Positions 1 through 7,711 of a stretch of DNA of 7,740 nucleotides are shown in pieces. This DNA is from a virus (taxonomy: Duplodnaviria; Heunggongvirae; Uroviricota; Caudoviricetes): the IMG/VR virus record IMGVR_UViG_2671180405_000016; one strand, 5' to 3'. The notes beneath the pieces were generated by a model. The model saw only the letters and a list, made by a program, of their open reading frames with translations, was not told the DNA's origin and did not search any database. Each line of letters opens with the position of its first letter. Position 1 is the stretch's first letter. Position numbers and translations under genes: made by a program.

Positions 1-12
1 AGTGTAGCGGTA

Positions 13-1290
13 TTAAGCGCAGCTATTTAGTGAATTAAGTAAATTAGTCAGTGACCTTGTAAAGTCTGTTAAACCTTCCTGTGAACCATCGAACATTAAG
101 GCCAGATTATTATTCCATGAATTACTTAAGCGGCCTAACTGCGTCTGAGTAGAGTTAATAATCTTTTCCCATCCACCAGCTTTATCAATCATCCTTCCCA
201 TTTCAGCGGATACTTTAGGAAGAACATCTTTAGAAAGAATCTTACCGTCTTTCATGGCCTTGTCTAATTCTTCCGTAGTCATCCCAAGACTTCTGGCAAA
301 TAACTGAAAAGCACCTGCCATTCTGTCACCTAATTGACCGCGTAGCTCTTCAGCCTGAATCTTTCCTTTAGATGCCATCTGCTCGAAAGCTTTTAAAATC
401 CCGTTAATTTCATCGGTGCTTAGCCCCATTAATCTGGATGTACCAATCACATTAGAAAATAAGGATTCTTTCTGGTCTGCATTCATATCACCAGCACCAG
501 CGGAAAACTTAGCAAAACTGCTTAATGTTTCAATCTGGTCTACACCACTACTATCAGCAAGATTCTTAACAAATTCTGTAGCTCGTTTAGCACCTTCATC
601 ACCTAAAACGAATTGTGCCGCTCGTTGTGATGCTTCTTTTTTCAGACCAACCTCCATAATCCGCCTGTAAGCTTCTAAGGCTGTCTGAAAACTATAAATG
701 GCTGTACCTGCTTTGATTGCACTCGTAGCTAATACATCCAGACTATTTGAAGCATTTTCACTGTGATTATTTTTGCTGGTGGTCTTGTTAAACTTAGAAA
801 GTGTTTCACGAAGAGACTGATTTAACTTTGCTAACTCACGATTAAAAGTTTCGTTTCCAAGTGTCTTGGATTTACTGCTTAAGCTGTAATACTGGCTTTT
901 AAAATACTTCTCAAGCATAGGATTAAAGTCACGAAGCTTGCTCATATTCGCTGAGTAAGCTGCTGTGATTGCTCTGCTTCCGCTAATTCGTGGCTGTCTT
1001 GGTTGTCTAAGTGGCTTTAAAGTATCCTCAATTTCAGTTTTAATCTTAAACGCTCTAGTGTTTTTAAGACGCTGCTCAATCTTGGAAACAGTTTTATCGA
1101 CATTTCTTTCCATTAGTTTGAGAGAATCATTTAAAGGCGTAGGATTAACTCTAAACGACTTATTCAATCGCTTCTCAATTCGTGATGCTACCTGCATCGT
1201 TTGTTTCTCGGCTTTTTCCAAGCCTTTTAAAACTTTCTGAGAGTTAAAACTTAACTCAATCAGAAAATCATCAACTTTAAATTGTGCCAT
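13..1290 (-). CDS. phage tail tape-measure protein-like (lambda gpH-like), 425 aa, possibly C-terminally truncated
   Basis: Complete ORF with ATG at 1290-1288 and TAA at 15-13; upstream AGAGGTGA Shine-Dalgarno-like motif. The N-terminus (MAQFKVDDFLIELSF) has the pattern of the lambda H N-terminus (MAEPVGDLVVDLSL). The motif EELDKAMKDGKIL resembles lambda H EELNKALKDGKIL, and the C-terminal FDG...FTRSL resembles lambda H FDG...FTRSV. The protein ends where lambda H continues into its hydrophobic C-terminal region. Similarity is recalled from memory, not computed. Confidence 0.6.
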   Translation of the reverse strand: MAQFKVDDFLIELSFNSQKVLKGLEKAEKQTMQVASRIEKRLNKSFRVNPTPLNDSLKLMERNVDKTVSKIEQRLKNTRAFKIKTEIEDTLKPLRQPRQPRISGSRAITAAYSANMSKLRDFNPMLEKYFKSQYYSLSSKSKTLGNETFNRELAKLNQSLRETLSKFNKTTSKNNHSENASNSLDVLATSAIKAGTAIYSFQTALEAYRRIMEVGLKKEASQRAAQFVLGDEGAKRATEFVKNLADSSGVDQIETLSSFAKFSAGAGDMNADQKESLFSNVIGTSRLMGLSTDEINGILKAFEQMASKGKIQAEELRGQLGDRMAGAFQLFARSLGMTTEELDKAMKDGKILSKDVLPKVSAEMGRMIDKAGGWEKIINSTQTQLGRLSNSWNNNLALMFDGSQEGLTDFTRSLTNLLNSLNSCA

Positions 1291-1380
1291 TCATATTTTT
1301 CACCTCTTTAAGCGTGTTGTACGTAAATTCTATTTTTCAGTGTGGGTATTAGCTTTACAGATTTCACGTAGCACACATAC

Positions 1381-1425
1381 AAAAAAAGGGAGAGCTACCG
1401 ATGTCACTCGATAATCTCTCCCCGT
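1381..1425 (-). terminator. rho-independent terminator-like hairpin followed by a T-run on the minus strand
   Basis: GGGAGAG (1388-1394) pairs with CTCTCCC (1417-1423) around a 22-nt loop; on the minus strand the stem is followed by 7 T (plus-strand A-run 1381-1387). It lies between the 69-aa gene and the tape-measure-like gene. The loop is long, so strength is uncertain. Confidence 0.45.
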
Positions 1426-1446
1426 ATTTACCCAACCAATTCTTTT

Positions 1447-1656
1447 TTAATGTCGGACAAGATAATGTAATTCCGTTTCACCTATGATTTGAGCATCAGA
1501 AGGAATACGGTCAATACACCACTTTGGAATCTTGCGTGTTTTTGGTTTGTGTGAGGTGATAACTTGACGTTTGTTTTTAATTCTTAAGGCTGGCTTAGTT
1601 TGTAACTTTAAGTTTTCACAAACAGACCGAATAGTCTCTAAACGTTCTTCAAACAT
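1447..1656 (-). CDS. hypothetical small basic protein (69 aa)
   Basis: ATG at 1656-1654 preceded by TTAAAGAGGTGATTA (the same TTAAAGAGGTGA motif precedes the tape-measure-like gene); TAA stop at 1449-1447. The C-terminal half is rich in K/R. No recognisable family. Confidence 0.5.
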   Translation of the reverse strand: MFEERLETIRSVCENLKLQTKPALRIKNKRQVITSHKPKTRKIPKWCIDRIPSDAQIIGETELHYLVRH

Positions 1657-1678
1657 TAATCACCTCTTTAATTCATAA

Positions 1679-2389
1679 TCAAACAGCCTTGCTATACTTC
1701 TGAGAAATCTTCGTTAACTGCTCAATATCAGCCATCAAAGCAATCTTCTTCTGCGACTCATATTCACTAACAAGTTCTTTCATAGTATCAAGTTCTTTTT
1801 TAAGCTTTTGCTTTAACTTATCCAGTTTACCGGAATAATGCTTAGTCAAATTAGCTTCAGCTAACTGAAGAATCTCTTCATCTGTTTTATCAGTCATCAG
1901 AATAAATTGACCAGAACCCCTTAATGCTTGTCTGACATCAATTAACCGGAACCCTTCAGGGATACTTTGAAGAACTTTAGGAACGTCTTCAATCGCTGTA
2001 CCAAAACCATCATTAAAGTTTCCTTCATAATAGATAAACGGGTTTGACTTAATCTCGTAAGCAATATCATATTCTGAAGGTTTCGAGGTTTCTTCGAAGT
2101 TCTTAACAGCATCGTAAGCGACATCAAGTCTAAGACGCTGTGATTTTAAAGCTGGGTAATATTCACGCTCAAGCTCAAATAGTGCTTCAGTTTTGCAGAT
2201 ATCAGGCATTTCTTGAGGCTCAGGAGACACAAAGGAAATTACCTTTGGTGACATCTTTAGCTCTTGCTCAAGCTCAATGCGCTTGTCATGCTCTTGACGC
2301 TGAATAGTATGTAGCGGATGTTCACCCTGTGGTGACCAGTCTCCGAAGCTATCAACCTTTTTACCGTTAATATATAAATCGTTTGTCAT
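1679..2389 (-). CDS. hypothetical acidic protein (236 aa) with coiled-coil-like C-terminus
   Basis: ATG at 2389-2387 preceded by AGAGGAAATTATA; TGA stop at 1681-1679, 22 nt upstream of the next gene. No recognisable motif; its position upstream of the tape-measure-like gene could suggest a tail-module role, but this is not supported by sequence similarity. Confidence 0.65.
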   Translation of the reverse strand: MTNDLYINGKKVDSFGDWSPQGEHPLHTIQRQEHDKRIELEQELKMSPKVISFVSPEPQEMPDICKTEALFELEREYYPALKSQRLRLDVAYDAVKNFEETSKPSEYDIAYEIKSNPFIYYEGNFNDGFGTAIEDVPKVLQSIPEGFRLIDVRQALRGSGQFILMTDKTDEEILQLAEANLTKHYSGKLDKLKQKLKKELDTMKELVSEYESQKKIALMADIEQLTKISQKYSKAV

Positions 2390-2414
2390 TATAATTTCCT
2401 CTAAGTGTGGTTAT

Positions 2415-2490
2415 TTCTTAATAGAGCACCTTCAACGCCAATACACTTAGAAGATGACTTAACGATTTATTAAAGATGCTCTATTAAGAA
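2415..2490. repeat. 14-bp perfect inverted repeat (TTCTTAATAGAGCA / TGCTCTATTAAGAA) separated by 48 bp
   Basis: Arms at 2415-2428 and 2477-2490 are exact reverse complements; the element sits in the leader region upstream (on the minus strand) of the 236-aa gene and abuts a second hairpin. Confidence 0.5.
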
Positions 2491-2520
2491 AAGCCCTAAA
2501 CATAATCTGTGAAGGGCTTT
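2490..2520 (-). terminator. hairpin AAAGCCCT / AGGGCTTT, weak terminator-like
   Basis: 8-bp perfect stem (2490-2497 with 2513-2520) around a 15-nt loop; on the minus strand it is followed by TTCTTAAT. The loop is long. Confidence 0.3.
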
Positions 2521-2574
2521 GGAGGTTTGCTTATAACGTTAACGAAGTTTCAGGAAAACTTTCTTTAAAAGCTC

Positions 2575-2617
2575 TGTTTAAAAACTCTTAAAGAAAGCCC
2601 TAACTCATGATTAGGGC
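2575..2617 (-). terminator. rho-independent terminator-like hairpin on the minus strand
   Basis: Stem GCCCTAA (2597-2603) / TTAGGGC (2611-2617) with a 7-nt loop; on the minus strand it is followed by TTTCTTTAAGAGTTTTT. Positioned downstream of the 4718-to-2905 gene string. Confidence 0.4.
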
Positions 2618-2904
2618 AAAGCTGTAAAGGATTCAATAATGAATGAACAAAGACTTTTTGAGATAGCCTCTCAGACCAACCTGAAAGGCTAGGACGAAAA
2701 GCATTGCACCTTTCCAACTCAGAATATCCATCCATCGGATTATTGAAAGAAAAAATAAGAGAGAATTGCTCTCCCCCATATATACAATTATGTCATGCTC
2801 AAGGTTGTTTGTCAACAGCTTTTAACAGATTGGTAACATTTATACTTTAATAGATGCACCTGCAATCATACCAATCAATACAAAACAGATAATCACCAAT
2901 TCCA

Positions 2905-3228
2905 TTAATGCACCACCTTCGAATCCGTCACCAGAATATTATCGCTATACAAAATTGCTATAGCCGCCTTGAGATATTTTTCAGGGCTAACGCTGTATTT
3001 GTTCGTTTCTTCGATAATAAGACGCTTCATGTTTGAGTCGGTAACAGGAAACATAAAACGCGGTTCACCAGTTTCAATTTCCTGAATAAAGTCTTCAATT
3101 TCTTCTGAGTTTTCAGCCATTAGCTTTAGTAATTTATCAAGGTCAATTGATACACCGGAATCAGCGAAAGCCTGCACCATCATAGCAGTGTCGCTATCAA
3201 TGAAAATCTGTAATTCATATTCGTTCAT
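2905..3228 (-). CDS. hypothetical protein (107 aa from ATG at 3228; ORF track extends to a TTG at 3261)
   Basis: ATG at 3228-3226 preceded by AAGGAG with a 9-nt spacer; TAA stop at 2907-2905. The upstream TTG extension has no ribosome-binding site and would run into repeat copy 1. No recognisable family. Confidence 0.6.
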   Translation of the reverse strand: MNEYELQIFIDSDTAMMVQAFADSGVSIDLDKLLKLMAENSEEIEDFIQEIETGEPRFMFPVTDSNMKRLIIEETNKYSVSPEKYLKAAIAILYSDNILVTDSKVVH

Positions 3229-3248
3229 TTTTAAAATCTCCTTTTTAC

Positions 3249-3375
3249 CAGACCTCCTCAATCGCTCTGTAACGAGCTAAACAGTCTTTTTCAGGGGTAG
3301 CCTGTACAGTGGTATTACCCACCCTAAAATAAGATAGTTTTTTGCGTTAGAATGCGATTGAGAGCGTCTGATAAG
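3249..3375 (+). repeat. copy 1 of an inverted-repeat-bounded element of about 127 bp (conserved terminal blocks, variable centre)
   Basis: The 5' block CAGACCTCCTCAATCGCTCTGTAACGAGCTAAACAG and 3' block TTTTTTGCGTTAGAATGCGATTGAGAGCGTCTGATAAG are each about 85-90% identical to the corresponding blocks of the copy at 4901-5004. The terminal 16-mers (3250-3265 and 3354-3369) are imperfect reverse complements, giving about 15 bp of pairing with single bulges. Confidence 0.6.
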
Positions 3376-3406
3376 CTGTTTTTCTAATTTCTCTTAAAGT
3401 CTCGGA

Positions 3407-3607
3407 CTACCAATAACCTAATTCCGCTTTATTTCGTTCAAACCATTCCGCTGTAACTGCTGTCTTTAGTGTTACGTTTGGGCTGGTGGCATGAATGAAG
3501 ATATCTTTTGGATTGCAAGCATCACCGAAACCACCTTCTTTGATGAGCAGGTCTGATACATGCTTAATCATTTTATCTGTCAAATATTCGAATTTAATAC
3601 ATAACAT
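3407..3607 (-). CDS. hypothetical protein (66 aa from ATG at 3607; ORF track gives a TTG start at 3640)
   Basis: ATG at 3607-3605 overlaps the upstream gene's stop as TAATG and is preceded by GGAG with a 5-nt spacer; TAG stop at 3409-3407. No recognisable family. Confidence 0.5.
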   Translation of the reverse strand: MLCIKFEYLTDKMIKHVSDLLIKEGGFGDACNPKDIFIHATSPNVTLKTAVTAEWFERNKAELGYW

Positions 3608-3879
3608 TAAATCTCCAGGAGTAAATTGTTTGGGTGGCAATTTCTTTTATTACCATCCCTGAAGATAATCTTTTTAGTTGCCTGAACTTCATGATGCAAA
3701 AACCAGATGACATACTTCAGATAATAATCACGAGTGCCATAACGAATCATTGGATTACCGTAAGCATCATCTCTTGTCTTAACCTCTCCACCATCAATCC
3801 ATTCAAGCATTCCTGTCTCATAATTAATCATGAAGTAAGTTGCAAAGAACCGTTTAATATCATCTCGCCATTGCTTCAT
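3607..3879 (-). CDS. HNH-like (HNH_3-type) small protein, 90 aa, with a degenerate catalytic motif
   Basis: ATG at 3879-3877 preceded by AGGAGG with a 7-nt spacer; TAA at 3609-3607. The C-terminus YVIWFLHHEV...KKIIFRDGNKRNCHPNNLLL resembles the HNH_3 pattern (HRL.W.L.HG....IDHIDGN..NN..NLR), but the IDH position reads IFR, so the usual catalytic His appears absent. Assignment is by eye. Confidence 0.55.
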   Translation of the reverse strand: MKQWRDDIKRFFATYFMINYETGMLEWIDGGEVKTRDDAYGNPMIRYGTRDYYLKYVIWFLHHEVQATKKIIFRDGNKRNCHPNNLLLEI

Positions 3880-3881
3880 AA

Positions 3882-4160
3882 TCAGACCTCCTGAGACAGT
3901 TTGTGAATTTTGATACTTAGTAACCTTGCTAAATCCAGTCCAAAAGCATTTAAGGATTTCAGACTATCAAGGTCATCTTGCTTAATCCTGATATGGTGTC
4001 TTGCAGCCTCTAAGCGACTATTAAGCAAATCCTGTTCGTTAATATCACGGTTAATTGCAAGCTTCATCACTGCTGAGTGTGGCAGACCTGTAATGTTTTT
4101 GATTCGGTTCAGTTCATCAAAGGCTGTCTTTGTAACTCTGGTTAATGTGTGTTTATTCAT
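3882..4160 (-). CDS. hypothetical protein (92 aa), possibly a small DNA-binding regulator
   Basis: ATG at 4160-4158 preceded by GAGGA with an 8-nt spacer and directly abutting the upstream gene's TAA (4163-4161); TGA stop at 3884-3882, 2 nt before the next ATG. The segment TAFDELNRIKNITGLPHSAVMKLAINR is helix-turn-helix-like by eye only. Confidence 0.6.
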   Translation of the reverse strand: MNKHTLTRVTKTAFDELNRIKNITGLPHSAVMKLAINRDINEQDLLNSRLEAARHHIRIKQDDLDSLKSLNAFGLDLARLLSIKIHKLSQEV

Positions 4161-4718
4161 TTAAAAATCCTCTGTAACTAAATAGGGGTCAAACTCGAAA
4201 TCTGGTTGCTCGTTTTCCATTGGCTCAATATTCCCAACGGCAATATGATGTTCAACAATGCCAATTAATTTCGCGCACATCACAGCAAGCAAAGCGCAAT
4301 ATTTATCGCTTGGTAATTCGTAACTAAGTCTGGTTGCCTGTCGCTGAAGATGATTTGTCACGGTGGATGCGTTAATTTCGTCAAGATTCTTTAGCAGATA
4401 AAATAGTTTTTTGTTGTATTTCGGGTGGCCTTCACTTCTACAGAACCCAATAAAAACATCATCAAGCTTGCTTGGTAACTGCTCGTAACTGTCAAAGTTA
4501 GCCAGATAATTTTTAATAGTATTCTTTGTTGTTTTGCGTACTGGCATAAATCTGTCTCGTGGCGTAATGCTACGAATGACCGCTTCAATGTTCTTACGTT
4601 CGGATTTGCTAAAGGTTGGGACTTCGTAGCTGGTGGGGTTGTTTGTGTAAGCGTAGGAGTTGTGCTTGTTGCGTTCTCTTGATGCCTGAAGCATCGCTCT
4701 AAATTCTGAATACTGCAT
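4161..4718 (-). CDS. hypothetical protein (185 aa), first gene of the minus-strand operon
   Basis: ATG at 4718-4716 about 45 nt downstream of the predicted minus-strand promoter. A 5-codon upstream mini-ORF (ATG AGA GTC AGA ACA TGA) ends immediately before this ATG; the conventional Shine-Dalgarno sequence is weak. No recognisable family. Confidence 0.6.
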   Translation of the reverse strand: MQYSEFRAMLQASRERNKHNSYAYTNNPTSYEVPTFSKSERKNIEAVIRSITPRDRFMPVRKTTKNTIKNYLANFDSYEQLPSKLDDVFIGFCRSEGHPKYNKKLFYLLKNLDEINASTVTNHLQRQATRLSYELPSDKYCALLAVMCAKLIGIVEHHIAVGNIEPMENEQPDFEFDPYLVTEDF

Positions 4719-4769
4719 TCATGTTCTGACTCTCATAAGATGTTATTATTCTGTTAACCTATATATACA

Positions 4770-4798
4770 ATATTAGCATTTTCAAAGACTAATGTCAA
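4770..4798 (-). promoter_or_regulatory. sigma70-type promoter for the minus-strand operon
   Basis: On the minus strand: -35 TTGACA (plus 4793-4798), 17-bp spacer, -10 TAATAT (plus 4770-4775). Confidence 0.5.
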
Positions 4799-4804
4799 GT
4801 ATTT

Positions 4805-4834
4805 TTAACATTTTCGTAACATCTGTGGTATAAT
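4805..4834 (+). promoter_or_regulatory. sigma70-type promoter with extended -10, rightward
   Basis: -35 TTAACA (4805-4810), 18-bp spacer, TGg-TATAAT extended -10 (TG at 4826-4827, TATAAT at 4829-4834). It sits back-to-back with the leftward promoter, with 6 bp between the two -35 hexamers. Confidence 0.55.
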
Positions 4835-4856
4835 GGGTTTATGGGGAGAGTAAAAT

Positions 4857-5189
4857 ATGAGGCGTGGCTATGTATTTGGTCGCATATTTTGCATTGCACA
4901 CAGACCTCTTCAATCGCCCTGTAACGAGTTAAACGACCTCTTCAGGTCAACTCATAAGGTCAGGTACTTTTTGTGTCAGAATGCGATTGAGAGCGTCTTA
5001 CAAGGAAAACTAATGGTAAATCTCCCTCCTGAGCTGGGGTCACCTGATGTATGGACTGGTGGAGGTATTGGGCTGATTGCAGGCCTGCTACTTCGCTACG
5101 TCCTCGTCAGAGTGCTTGTTGTCTTTAAACTGTTCGGTCGTACATGGACGCTTGACCTTAAGGATAACGACCACACAGACCCCCGTTAA
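4857..5189 (+). CDS. hypothetical protein; the C-terminal 58 aa (alternative start ATG at 5013) form a small predicted single-pass membrane protein
   Basis: ATG at 4857 preceded by GGGGAGAG; TAA at 5187-5189. An in-frame ATG at 5013 has its own AAGGA ribosome-binding site (6-nt spacer) and gives MVNLPPELGSPDVWTGGGIGLIAGLLLRYVLVRVLVVFKLFGRTWTLDLKDNDHTDPR, with a hydrophobic stretch GGGIGLIAGLLLRYVLVRVLVVF. The 5' part of the long ORF overlaps repeat copy 2, so which start is used is unresolved. Confidence 0.4.
   Translation: MRRGYVFGRIFCIAHRPLQSPCNELNDLFRSTHKVRYFLCQNAIESVLQGKLMVNLPPELGSPDVWTGGGIGLIAGLLLRYVLVRVLVVFKLFGRTWTLDLKDNDHTDPR
4901..5004 (+). repeat. copy 2 of the inverted-repeat-bounded element (about 104 bp; shorter variable centre)
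   Basis: 5' block CAGACCTCTTCAATCGCCCTGTAACGAGTTAAACGACCTCTTCAGG and 3' block TTTTTGTGTCAGAATGCGATTGAGAGCGTCTTACAAG. The terminal 16-mers (4902-4917 and 4983-4998) pair as 4 + 4 + 7 bp with two single-nucleotide bulges. Same orientation as copy 1. Confidence 0.6.
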
Positions 5190-5201
5190 ACTCCTTCAAA
5201 A

Positions 5202-5242
5202 CCCCTGCACGAGATGACAGATAGAAGTCTATGGTACAGGGG
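5202..5242 (+). terminator. weak terminator-like hairpin downstream of the small membrane-protein ORF
   Basis: CCCCTG (5202-5207) pairs with CAGGGG (5237-5242) around a 29-nt loop, followed by TGTCTTTAGCATTTTGTG. The loop is too long for a strong call. Confidence 0.2.
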
Positions 5243-5324
5243 TGTCTTTAGCATTTTGTGCTATCTATTAAAAAATAGCTTGACAGAACCGGAAAGCTGT
5301 ATCTATCAAGCATTCACCTCTCTG

Positions 5325-5514
5325 ACAGTAATTTCTAAAAGTTCTTATTTTTCAATAAGTTGTAATTAGCCATATATAGAGAACTGACAAGTCTCTTCAC
5401 AGACAACTCTGCAACCTTAACAGTAACTTCTAAAAATGCTTATTTTTCAACGAGTTGTAATCACCCAATATATAAGGCTGTCCAGTACCTTCACAGATAA
5501 CTTCAAGCCCTCTT
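5325..5514 (+). repeat. tandem direct repeat, two copies of a 95-bp unit
   Basis: Unit 1 starts at 5325 (ACAGTAATTTCTAAAAGTTCTTATTTTTCAATAAGTTGTAAT...) and unit 2 at 5420 (ACAGTAACTTCTAAAAATGCTTATTTTTCAACGAGTTGTAAT...). The first 42 nt match at 37 positions, and homology continues through ...CTTCACAGA(C/T)AACT... to the unit end. Confidence 0.55.
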
Positions 5515-6243
5515 AACCGCCCCACTAATCGGGAGAAGAGCGATAACCCCAGAGAGGGAAGCTCCTTTCTTAACCGACCTCTTAAACGACCTTTACAGAC
5601 CTTGTTCAAGGTAATCACAATAGTTTTTCTTCCCTCGGTTTCCTGTGTTCCTCGGCTGGCTATTGAGATTTGAAAGACCTCTGTAAGCGCTCTCTTAGCG
5701 AGAGAAAAATCATTCATAGTGACCCCAAGCGAAGCGCCCCTCTAAAAAAAGATTTTTTAGCTATTTTGTTTAAAAGCATATCAAACGATACATTTTATTG
5801 ATTTAGGTCAAAGACAAAAGCATTGACAAAATGGTAAGATTGTTCACATGACCTTACTTATTTAAGAGACTTTGAAACAGCCTGTTTAACAGGTCACTAC
5901 CTCTGGTCTTATCGTTCCCTTCTTTCTAGGTGGTTATCTGTTAAGAGTTTTTCAGTTTTTATTCTTAAGATAATTGTTAAGATGATACTCTCCCTTCGGG
6001 TTATATCGTATCTCTTCTCCCGTTAAATATCCCTTCACAGTCAGACTAAATAACACCTGTGTAGTTCTTGGTAGAATCTTTCAAGGTAACTTAGCTCTGA
6101 GTTTATGAAGTTGACCTATGAGATAGACTCTACCGAATCTGTTAGTCAATTGTTGCTTAGGTGCTGCTAAGTGAAGTGGCACACTGAATTTGGCCACCTG
6201 AACAGAGGTGATATGCTCACCTCAGAACAACACAGGTGCTCCA

Positions 6244-7412
<1,169 letters not shown>

Positions 7413-7420
7413 CCACTTCA

Positions 7421-7711
7421 GGCGACTTATCAGTGGAAAAACACAGAACGATCAGGATATATGCGCCCTGGCAAAAGAGTATGAGATCGCCATGCTGTTG
7501 GTGACTAAAGGTGCAGAAGGGGTGGTGGTCTGTTATCGAGGACAAGTTCACCATTTTGCTGGAATGTCTGTGAATTGTGTCGATAGCACGGGGGCGGGAG
7601 ATGCGTTCGTTGCCGGGTTACTCACAGGTCTGTCCTCTACGGGATTATCTACAGATGAGAGAGAAATGCGACGAATTATCGATCTCGCTCAACGTTGCGG
7701 AGCGCTTGCAG
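7421..7711 (+). pseudogene. internal fragment of a pfkB-family carbohydrate kinase gene (fructokinase-like), truncated at both ends by IS elements
   Basis: The frame encodes ...ICALAKEYEIAMLLVTKGAEGVVVCYRGQVHHFAGMSVNCVDSTGAGDAFVAGLLTGL...AQRCGALA. DSTGAGDAFVAGLL matches the C-terminal pfkB/ribokinase-family signature (D-[ST]-x-GAGD). The coding frame is cut by the IS911 right end at 7420/7421 and runs into the IS1 end at 7712; about two thirds of a typical 300-aa kinase is missing. The ORF-track entry 7342-7716 is a chimera of IS911 sequence, this fragment and IS1. Confidence 0.7.

Follow-up and report, generated by a model that had tools for sequence, protein, structure and literature searches.

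The window analysed here, a stretch of 7,740 nucleotides of the IMG/VR virus record IMGVR_UViG_2671180405_000016 (Caudoviricetes), contains two related elements bounded by inverted repeats, copy 1 and copy 2, which an earlier note had pointed out from the sequence alone. These copies are paralogous, non-coding and island-specific quasi-palindromes of about 105-127 bp, and they occupy two of three fixed slots (c1, c2 and c3; Table 1) of a chromosomal island found in Shigella, Escherichia coli and E. albertii. Whether one slot is occupied does not depend on the other two, and the element is a dispensable, self-contained insertion module. The reading that we favour, tentatively, is that these optional palindromic modules are transcribed as double-stranded RNA hairpins in cis and are spread by recombination without a dedicated transposase.

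Sequence and fold of the two copies

A repeat search recovered the two blocks shared in direct orientation by copies 1 and 2. The 5' blocks (3249-3282 and 4901-4934) are 91% identical over 34 nt and 87% identical over the 47 nt aligned by BLAST, and the 3' blocks (3339-3375 and 4968-5004) are 89% identical over 37 nt. The centres differ, with about 43 nt in copy 1 and about 20 nt in copy 2. The inverted-repeat ends and the closing stem described in the earlier note were also found: the terminal 17-mers CAGACCTCCTCAATCGC and GCGATTGAGAGCGTCTG are imperfect reverse complements that pair with each other, and each element folds end to end into a single irregular hairpin of -46.1 kcal/mol for copy 1 (z-score -6.3) and -33.2 kcal/mol for copy 2 (z-score -4.0). 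None of 200 shuffled sequences reached the fold energy of either copy. The scan of the whole window against Rfam gave no match at E <= 1.

The 10-mer CAGACCTCCT is present at positions 3249 and 3883 and, with one mismatch, at position 4901; four matches are detected when one mismatch is allowed, for 0.33 expected. At position 3883, its complement corresponds to the Shine-Dalgarno region of the gene encoding the HNH endonuclease, so that the recurrence of a Shine-Dalgarno-like string at the start of this gene is well founded. The degenerate relatives of both blocks that had been reported at 5574-5611 and 5661-5700 did not survive the analysis. Unrelated stretches of the window, such as some within the tape-measure gene, score at least as high; the proposed relatives show no hairpin fold (z-scores of -0.3 and +0.9) and are not matched by the covariance model built from copies 1 and 2. 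A third, degenerate copy at 5565-5705 was rejected on these same grounds, its score being at background level.

A third copy and the occupation of three slots

We collected 131 loci from E. coli genomes, IMG/VR and metagenomes, the metagenome loci being picked by an exact 21-mer within the element. A third copy is present in the intact islands, in inverted orientation and in the distal non-coding region (slot c3). This copy 3 has the centre of copy 1 together with 33 nt of the 3' flank of copy 1, and its stem closes in another register than that of copy 1. Because of this different register, no single consensus structure was obtained for the three classes.

The 131 loci contain 134 copies, all located in the slots c1, c2 and c3 with a constant relative orientation. 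The canonical flanks were found for 62 of the 63 copies in c1, 38 of the 40 in c2 and 26 of the 29 in c3. The non-canonical flanks correspond to truncations by insertion sequences (IS), to one chance match and to two loci (L105 and L114) where a copy-3-type hairpin occupies the slot c1. The search with the covariance model detected no members outside the three slots and none in the Citrobacter island. No copies were found in the plasmid collection, searched with the whole 6.2-kb region in near mode, or in the phage collection, with which copy 2 was also compared in distant mode (0 matches). The BLAST comparison of copy 1 with 5,426 E. coli genomes gave only matches of element length or less. 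The family is thereby restricted to the serine-recombinase island of Shigella, E. coli and E. albertii; the protein scan of genome contigs detected relatives only in E. albertii and Citrobacter.

Filled and empty sites

The count of copies was accompanied by a search for empty sites, both envisaged in the earlier note, and empty sites were indeed found. In the Citrobacter island and in one E. albertii island, the alignment to the window stops at 4900-4904 and resumes at 5012, which means that copy 2 is precisely missing in them, and this contiguous empty site is shared by about 105 E. coli genomes. In the empty allele, ...GCATTGCACACAGA is directly followed by AGGTACATTGAATGG; in the filled allele, ...CACACAGA precedes the element (CCTCTTC...GTCTTACA), which is followed by AGGAAAACTAATGG. 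This junction shares just 1-2 nt with the empty site. One empty allele (L048) displays the right flank typical of filled sites, as a secondary deletion between short AG repeats would leave it. Concerning the combinations of copies 1 and 2, both are present in 17 loci, copy 1 only in 12, copy 2 only in 11 and neither in four.

Copy 1 is part of a larger swappable segment that also includes a 66-amino-acid (aa) open reading frame (ORF) and the HNH gene. In other islands, a 128-aa helix-turn-helix-like gene is found in place of the segment 3239-3875, with a different intergenic structure and no hairpin. The positions 3249-3258 and 3883-3892 represent a 10-nt direct repeat that edges the swapped segment, the two occurrences being 634 nt apart. 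An HNH gene is present in 41 of the 45 intervals between the 107-aa and 92-aa genes that are filled by the hairpin and in 4 of the 16 hairpin-less ones, a distribution suggesting that copy 1 hitch-hikes with the HNH homing-endonuclease cassette.

In the locus L003, the copy 3 unit is flanked by the 10-nt direct repeat TAAAATCTGT. The junction microhomologies consequently vary in the family, from 10 nt (CAGACCTCCT for the copy 1 segment, TAAAATCTGT for copy 3) to 1-2 nt (copy 2). The alternatives to copy 3 in the slot c3 are a G/U-rich segment with a canonical terminator, an HNH-AP2 homing-endonuclease gene or, in Citrobacter, almost nothing. The proteins annotated as "AP2/ERF family transcription factor" in this slot are homing-endonuclease-type proteins with HNH_3 and AP2 domains.

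Strand preference and variation

In the alignment of copies 1 and 2, 98.7% of the cells pair, for 32-44% when the partners are slid by 1-3 columns. Three pairs are changed on both sides, and the other changes are mostly one-sided, from G-C or A-U to G.U. For copy 2, the + version has a better fold than the reverse complement (-33.0 versus -26.8 kcal/mol), as observed in 25 of the 28 unique variants. The corresponding values are -43.2 versus -38.7 kcal/mol for copy 3 (23 of 25 unique variants) and -46.3 versus -44.4 kcal/mol for copy 1 (19 of 26). The common polymorphisms are A>G or C>U, which give G.U pairs on the better-folding strand; the changes of A.C type are mainly singletons, and one pair has switched from U-A to C-G via a G.U intermediate. 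The favoured strand of copy 2 is the strand read from its promoter, and this supports an RNA hairpin; as the sequences are close relatives, the statistics on strand and pairing are suggestive at most.

Transcription context

The divergent promoter-like sites detected between 4770 and 4834 place copy 2 in the leader of a small ORF encoding a predicted membrane protein of 58 aa, and copy 1 in the transcript of the leftward operon. The position of copy 2 within the 5' leader, already proposed in the earlier note, is thus in agreement with the near-consensus promoter at 4805-4834, a site that is also present in L003. The order of the leftward operon is 185-aa gene, 92-aa gene, HNH gene, 66-aa ORF, copy 1 and 107-aa gene. 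Copy 1 lies between the 66-aa/HNH genes and the 107-aa gene, and it adjoins the start of the latter on the - strand with a spacing of 21 nt (20 nt in the earlier note). No terminator-like site was found at copy 1 or copy 2, and the only promoter-like match inside the elements is a 9/12 match in copy 1, with none in copy 2. The motif scan therefore gives no support to elements acting as terminators or promoters.

The 58-aa ORF is conserved with or without the hairpin. The 5' end of its leader (4842-4850, GGGGAGAG) pairs with codons 3-6 of the ORF (5022-5030, TCTCCCTCC) in the filled and empty alleles alike, and a compensating G>A / C>T change in this pairing was read by eye from the alignments with Citrobacter. 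As the pairing is independent of copy 2, the hairpin is viewed as a self-contained insert, placed in the loop of a fold that predates it. These natural filled and empty leader alleles represent an easy system to study how a hairpin affects the expression of a small membrane protein. In islands without copy 2, the same leader holds another mini-insertion, unrelated and about 50 nt long (GAGGTTTATTCG...CCGAATCAACTATG), with inverted ends and flanking CTATG direct repeats; related motifs are found in the distal non-coding region.

Role and spread of the elements

If the copies are optional modules transcribed as hairpins, they would be co-transcribed with their neighbours and would act in cis as double-stranded RNA. 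Their likeliest role would be that of processing or stability elements, of the RNase III-substrate type, for the adjacent message. For copy 2, this role would be played in the leader, immediately ahead of the small ORF's ribosome-binding site; for copy 1, it would be played in the spacer between cistrons that follows the HNH cassette. The elements would spread across diverged island variants by homologous or microhomology-mediated recombination. Recombination is preferred to transposition because the lengths of the junction repeats vary, the slots are fixed, no transposase was found in association with the copies and copy 1 is linked to HNH cassettes. This recombinational spread is possibly stimulated by homing endonucleases. 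Phages and satellites offer known cases of recombination boundaries marked by homing-endonuclease genes (PMC10055350). Between islands that have only 81-83% identity in the neighbouring genes, the elements keep an identity of about 95%, a level that more likely reflects recent movement between diverged islands than constraint on every base. The structured RNA leader or module suggested by the earlier note is plausible for copy 2, where a promoter is located upstream, the insert is self-contained and pairing is kept through G.U. The bracketing of the four-gene operon by copies 1 and 2 appears to be incidental, and what looked like a delimited operon to be a coincidence of two slots.

Several observations weigh against this transcribed-hairpin reading. 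An involvement of RNase III is suggested only by analogy, and any function of the copies is accessory, the elements being dispensable. The favoured strand of copy 1 (+, by a small margin of 1.9 kcal/mol) is antisense to the operon, and copy 3 could be transcribed in either direction. The covariation is weak, with 17 polymorphic pair-states of G.U type versus 11 of A.C type (tallied by hand from the per-pair table, on closely related variants); this weakness is explained by the close kinship of the variants and by the selection of the metagenome loci with a 21-mer in the element. A high identity that extends to the loops can be accounted for by recent spread just as well as by selection. Finally, quasipalindrome correction by template switching could maintain the hairpins without selection.

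The main rival considers the copies as selfish or neutral DNA palindromes, MITE-like (miniature inverted-repeat transposable element) or slippage-prone, shuffled by recombination among three sites and without function as RNA or DNA. We regard it as rather unlikely. It has in its favour that the neighbouring genes and the promoter stay intact at the empty sites, which exist for every slot, that the identity of about 95% over the whole element, for 81-83% in the flanking genes, is what a recent spread would give, that the empty site of L048 resembles a secondary deletion between AG repeats, and that an unrelated mini-insertion with CTATG repeats has entered the same leader. It fits less well with the restriction to three slots of one island family, where no constant target duplication or partner transposase was found, and with common variants that keep pairing via G.U on one strand while the A.C changes are mostly singletons. 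Moreover, the three structurally distinct versions each keep a long hairpin through different pairings. The hairpin could also be the cis module of a site-specific, structure-dependent copy-in (homing-like) process performed by the free-standing HNH endonucleases of the island. This would explain why near-identical hairpins (95-99%) are found at the same three slots although the identity of the flanking genes is only 81-90%, why copy 1 is almost always accompanied by the HNH gene and why c3 holds either a hairpin or an HNH-AP2 gene; we nevertheless consider it improbable.

Three other explanations are progressively less likely than the neutral palindrome. The copies could be strand-specific single-stranded DNA (ssDNA) signals of the ssi or primosome-assembly type, flanking an origin of the island and used after its excision, the origin being seen in the iteron-like 95-nt tandem repeats at 5325-5502. 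In its favour, the better-folding strand is the + strand for copies 1 and 2 and the - strand for the inverted copy 3, a repeat-rich non-coding region lies between copies 2 and 3, and DNA hairpins are also stabilised by G.T pairs. A replication role is however hard to square with islands in which any combination of copies may be missing, or with the Citrobacter islands without any copy, and the protein family scans of the island proteins identified no replication initiator; this proposal is very unlikely. Even less probable is a trans-antisense pair, in which a duplex between the leader RNA of copy 2 and the operon mRNA containing copy 1 would couple the expression of the membrane protein and of the 107-aa protein. 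Being direct repeats transcribed in opposite directions, the copies do give complementary RNAs, both of which would be produced at once by the divergent promoters, and the cofold reaches -128.5 kcal/mol versus -79.3 kcal/mol for the two separate hairpins. This gain is thermodynamically trivial, and the pairing is not supported by co-occurrence: copy 2 is present in 59% of the loci with copy 1 and in 73% of those without it. In addition, the apical loops differ, so that nucleation by kissing loops is unavailable, and the complementary arms are locked in stable stems.

The last explanation, scarcely credible and already largely refuted, makes the copies recombination sites, either of serine recombinases (res/hix-like) or attC-like, which would delimit an excisable cassette (3376-4900, as the earlier note had suggested) or an invertible segment between copies 2 and 3. 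The direct orientation of copies 1 and 2, the inversion of copy 3 and the small resolvase/invertase-type gene near c3 in some islands could be understood in this way. Among the 131 loci, however, there is no deletion product, no hybrid copy or junction and no inverted arrangement, and cassette excision or inversion via the copies was rejected. The copies are independent, and the gene content between copies 1 and 2 does not depend on them, the 185-aa and 92-aa genes being there with or without the copies, so that the idea of a cassette must be abandoned. Islands with copy 3 are often without the small recombinase, the annotations of the examined islands list no tyrosine (IntI-type) integrase, and no GTTRRRY core site was seen on reading the copy sequences by eye.

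The host island

The positions 1-6171 of the window represent the right-hand portion of a chromosomal island, in a copy of the Shigella sonnei type shortened by IS911 and IS1. This truncation has removed the distal part of the island from the window, including the slot c3 with the third hairpin copy. The database records of the exact proteins of the window come mostly from Shigella sonnei. The 6.2-kb island part was matched in 539 of the 5,426 complete E. coli genomes (about 10%), in the chromosome every time, and the search of the whole 6.2-kb region in the plasmid collection (near mode) gave no matches. The comparison of the window with the phage collection gave only matches to IS911 and cscK.

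The annotated relatives are elements of 10-17 kb inserted at tonB/yciI, in yecE or at wrbA/ymdF; the copy in yecE of O157:H7 may be SpLE2, which is only a guess on our part. The gene order begins with a large serine recombinase, a "baseplate" protein and a tape-measure protein, and continues with the 69-aa, 236-aa and 107-aa genes, a variable cassette and the 92-aa and 185-aa genes. The island ends with 2-4 kb of mostly non-coding, repeat-rich DNA that contains the 58-aa membrane ORF. A Dam methylase, an HNH-AP2 gene or a small resolvase is sometimes found in the distal region. The island is low in GC and carries homing endonucleases. Scans of the island proteins of the window with Pfam, PHROGs, NCBIfam and PADLOC recognised only tape-measure and HNH domains, and the "transposase" label of the 236-aa protein is not supported by Pfam and NCBIfam. 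No characterisation of the island came up in a literature search that covered satellites, tape-measure proteins, serine recombinases and SpLE2. This host island may resemble a phage satellite or a minimal tail-module element, and, being satellite-like and uncharacterised, it is probably a better target for further study than the hairpins.

Other features were observed along the island. The tape-measure gene and the baseplate gene are both preceded by a conserved motif of 66 nt (...ACGTGAAA...GATTTCACGTAGCA), of which a third, partial copy lies in the distal region; it resembles a common promoter or activator site for leftward transcription of late type. A strong inverted repeat, distinct from the copies, at 2414-2491 (22-nt arms, 91% complementary, 34-nt loop) is found just upstream of the 236-aa gene, and its equivalent in L003 (19125-19219) is a weak structural match to the covariance model. 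A hydrophobic ORF of 21 aa (MELVIICFVLIGMIAGASIKV; 2840-2905, - strand), whose start overlaps the stop of the 107-aa gene (TAATG), is without annotation in the relatives examined. In the non-coding region, tandem units of about 95 nt at 5325-5408 and 5420-5502, with blocks 85% and 74% identical, are kept in other islands and could be duplicated promoters or the iterons of an origin. At 5806-5835, a promoter-like site with an extended -10 (AAGACA-18-TGgTAAGAT) reads rightwards into the distal region, which in many islands ends at a canonical terminator (GGGACTC...GAGTCCTTTTT) after the G/U-rich segment. This segment folds far better on the + strand (-74 versus -48 kcal/mol). A distal promoter with a terminator-ended segment suggests a non-coding RNA of about 0.5 kb.

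Table 1. Location of the features discussed in the text. Positions refer to the window unless a locus (L number) is given; CM, score with the covariance model.
Feature	Position	Strand	Remarks
Copy 1 (slot c1)	3249-3375		127-nt quasi-palindrome, one long hairpin; CM 111.5 bits
Copy 2 (slot c2)	4901-5004	+	104-nt hairpin, outer arms as in copy 1; CM 115.3 bits
Copy 3 (slot c3), examples	L003 23726-23852; L001 21259-21385		
Swappable segment	3239-3875	-	Copy 1, 66-aa ORF and HNH endonuclease gene; homology breaks at 3238 and resumes at 3876
10-mer CAGACCTCCT	3883-3892		Identical to the first 10 nt of copy 1; complement AGGAGGTCTG is the Shine-Dalgarno region of the HNH gene
107-aa gene	2905-3228	-	ATG at 3228, 21 nt from the end of copy 1
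Promoter-like site TTGACA-17-TAATAT	4770-4798	-	Divergent, for the leftward operon
Promoter-like site TTAACA-18-TGgTATAAT	4805-4834	+	11/12 matches plus TG; directed towards copy 2 and the small ORF
58-aa single-helix membrane protein ORF (predicted)	5013-5189	+	ATG at 5013, directly 3' of copy 2
Mini-insertion of about 50 nt	L047 and L048 ~5040-5090 (window ~4872)		Related motifs: L003 24428-24507, L010 ~7460-7500
HNH_3 and AP2 gene	L009 7314-7838; L131 11945-12469; L012		
66-nt motif	~1310-1380; L003 15753-15818, 18007-18072, 24133-24158		
Distal promoter-to-terminator region	5806-5835 onwards; L016 8030-8285; L010 7240-7565		
Host island, examples	1-6171; L001 11715-22330; L003 13236-25200		
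IS911	6172-7421		99% to the Sf6/SfII copies
Fructokinase (cscK) fragment	7421-7711		After IS911; IS1 terminal repeat next

Comparison with known repeat systems

The hairpins resemble the Correia, ERIC and PeSL repeats in kind only, as membership fails on the defining sequence or architecture. Several features of a MITE are present, namely terminal inverted repeats (17 nt, imperfect, the whole element forming a hairpin) and the clean empty sites of copy 2. The MITE-like explanation of the earlier note does not extend further: no related transposase was found, the duplicated target is not constant (1-2 nt for copy 2, 10 nt for the copy 3 unit and for the copy 1 segment), and the 134 copies, instead of being at unrelated sites, are all in three island slots. 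In comparison with res/hix or attC sites, recombination products are lacking, with no hybrid flanks among the 131 loci.

The ERIC/IRU are imperfect palindromes of about 127 bp located in transcribed intergenic regions of enterobacteria and thought to form RNA hairpins (reviews PMC2229807, PMC3184786). The island hairpins are also imperfect palindromes of similar length, in probably transcribed spacers of enterobacteria. In contrast to ERIC, which is found chromosome-wide, the hairpin family is confined to the island, and the ERIC2 core sequence gave no match with up to 3 mismatches, in accordance with the earlier note, which could not assign the repeats to ERIC.

In the T4-type phages, the PeSL cassettes are conserved small stem-loops found at the borders of inserted, deleted or replaced segments, in hyperplastic regions where small ORFans abound; modules are shuffled by recombination between PeSLs, and each PeSL is composed of a strong sigma-70 promoter and an effective terminator stem-loop (PMC2839356, PMC4122927). 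The island hairpins also sit at mosaic breakpoints, in regions that hold homing-endonuclease genes as well. Unlike PeSL, they are without a good promoter or terminator, and no product of recombination between copies was found in the 131 loci. The context of copy 2 recalls the mRNAs of type I toxins (hok, tisB, zorO), with a small hydrophobic ORF, a long structured leader and a 5' end that pairs with the start of the ORF. Here the hairpin is an optional insert and not a conserved regulatory fold as in the toxin leaders, and no antisense RNA gene was identified.

The Correia elements are the closest analogue of the hairpins in anatomy and position. These elements of Neisseria (CREE/nemis) measure about 105-155 bp, with terminal inverted repeats and with long forms and short, internally deleted forms; they are often located between a promoter and a gene and are transcribed, their mRNA hairpins are substrates of RNase III, which binds or cleaves them, and their presence or absence is polymorphic between strains (PMC2649163). 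They differ from the island hairpins by their number (hundreds), their dispersion in the genome and the duplication of TA (or CA), where we observe three fixed slots and no constant duplication. The island hairpins belong to an enterobacterial host and have neither sequence similarity to the Correia elements nor their 26-bp ends or TA duplication, and a cleavage by RNase III is proposed for them by analogy. They share with the Correia elements a similar length, terminal inverted repeats, differing centres, a position between promoter and gene and an optional presence, and they would represent a new, island-restricted family among the small palindromic repeats transcribed as mRNA hairpins.

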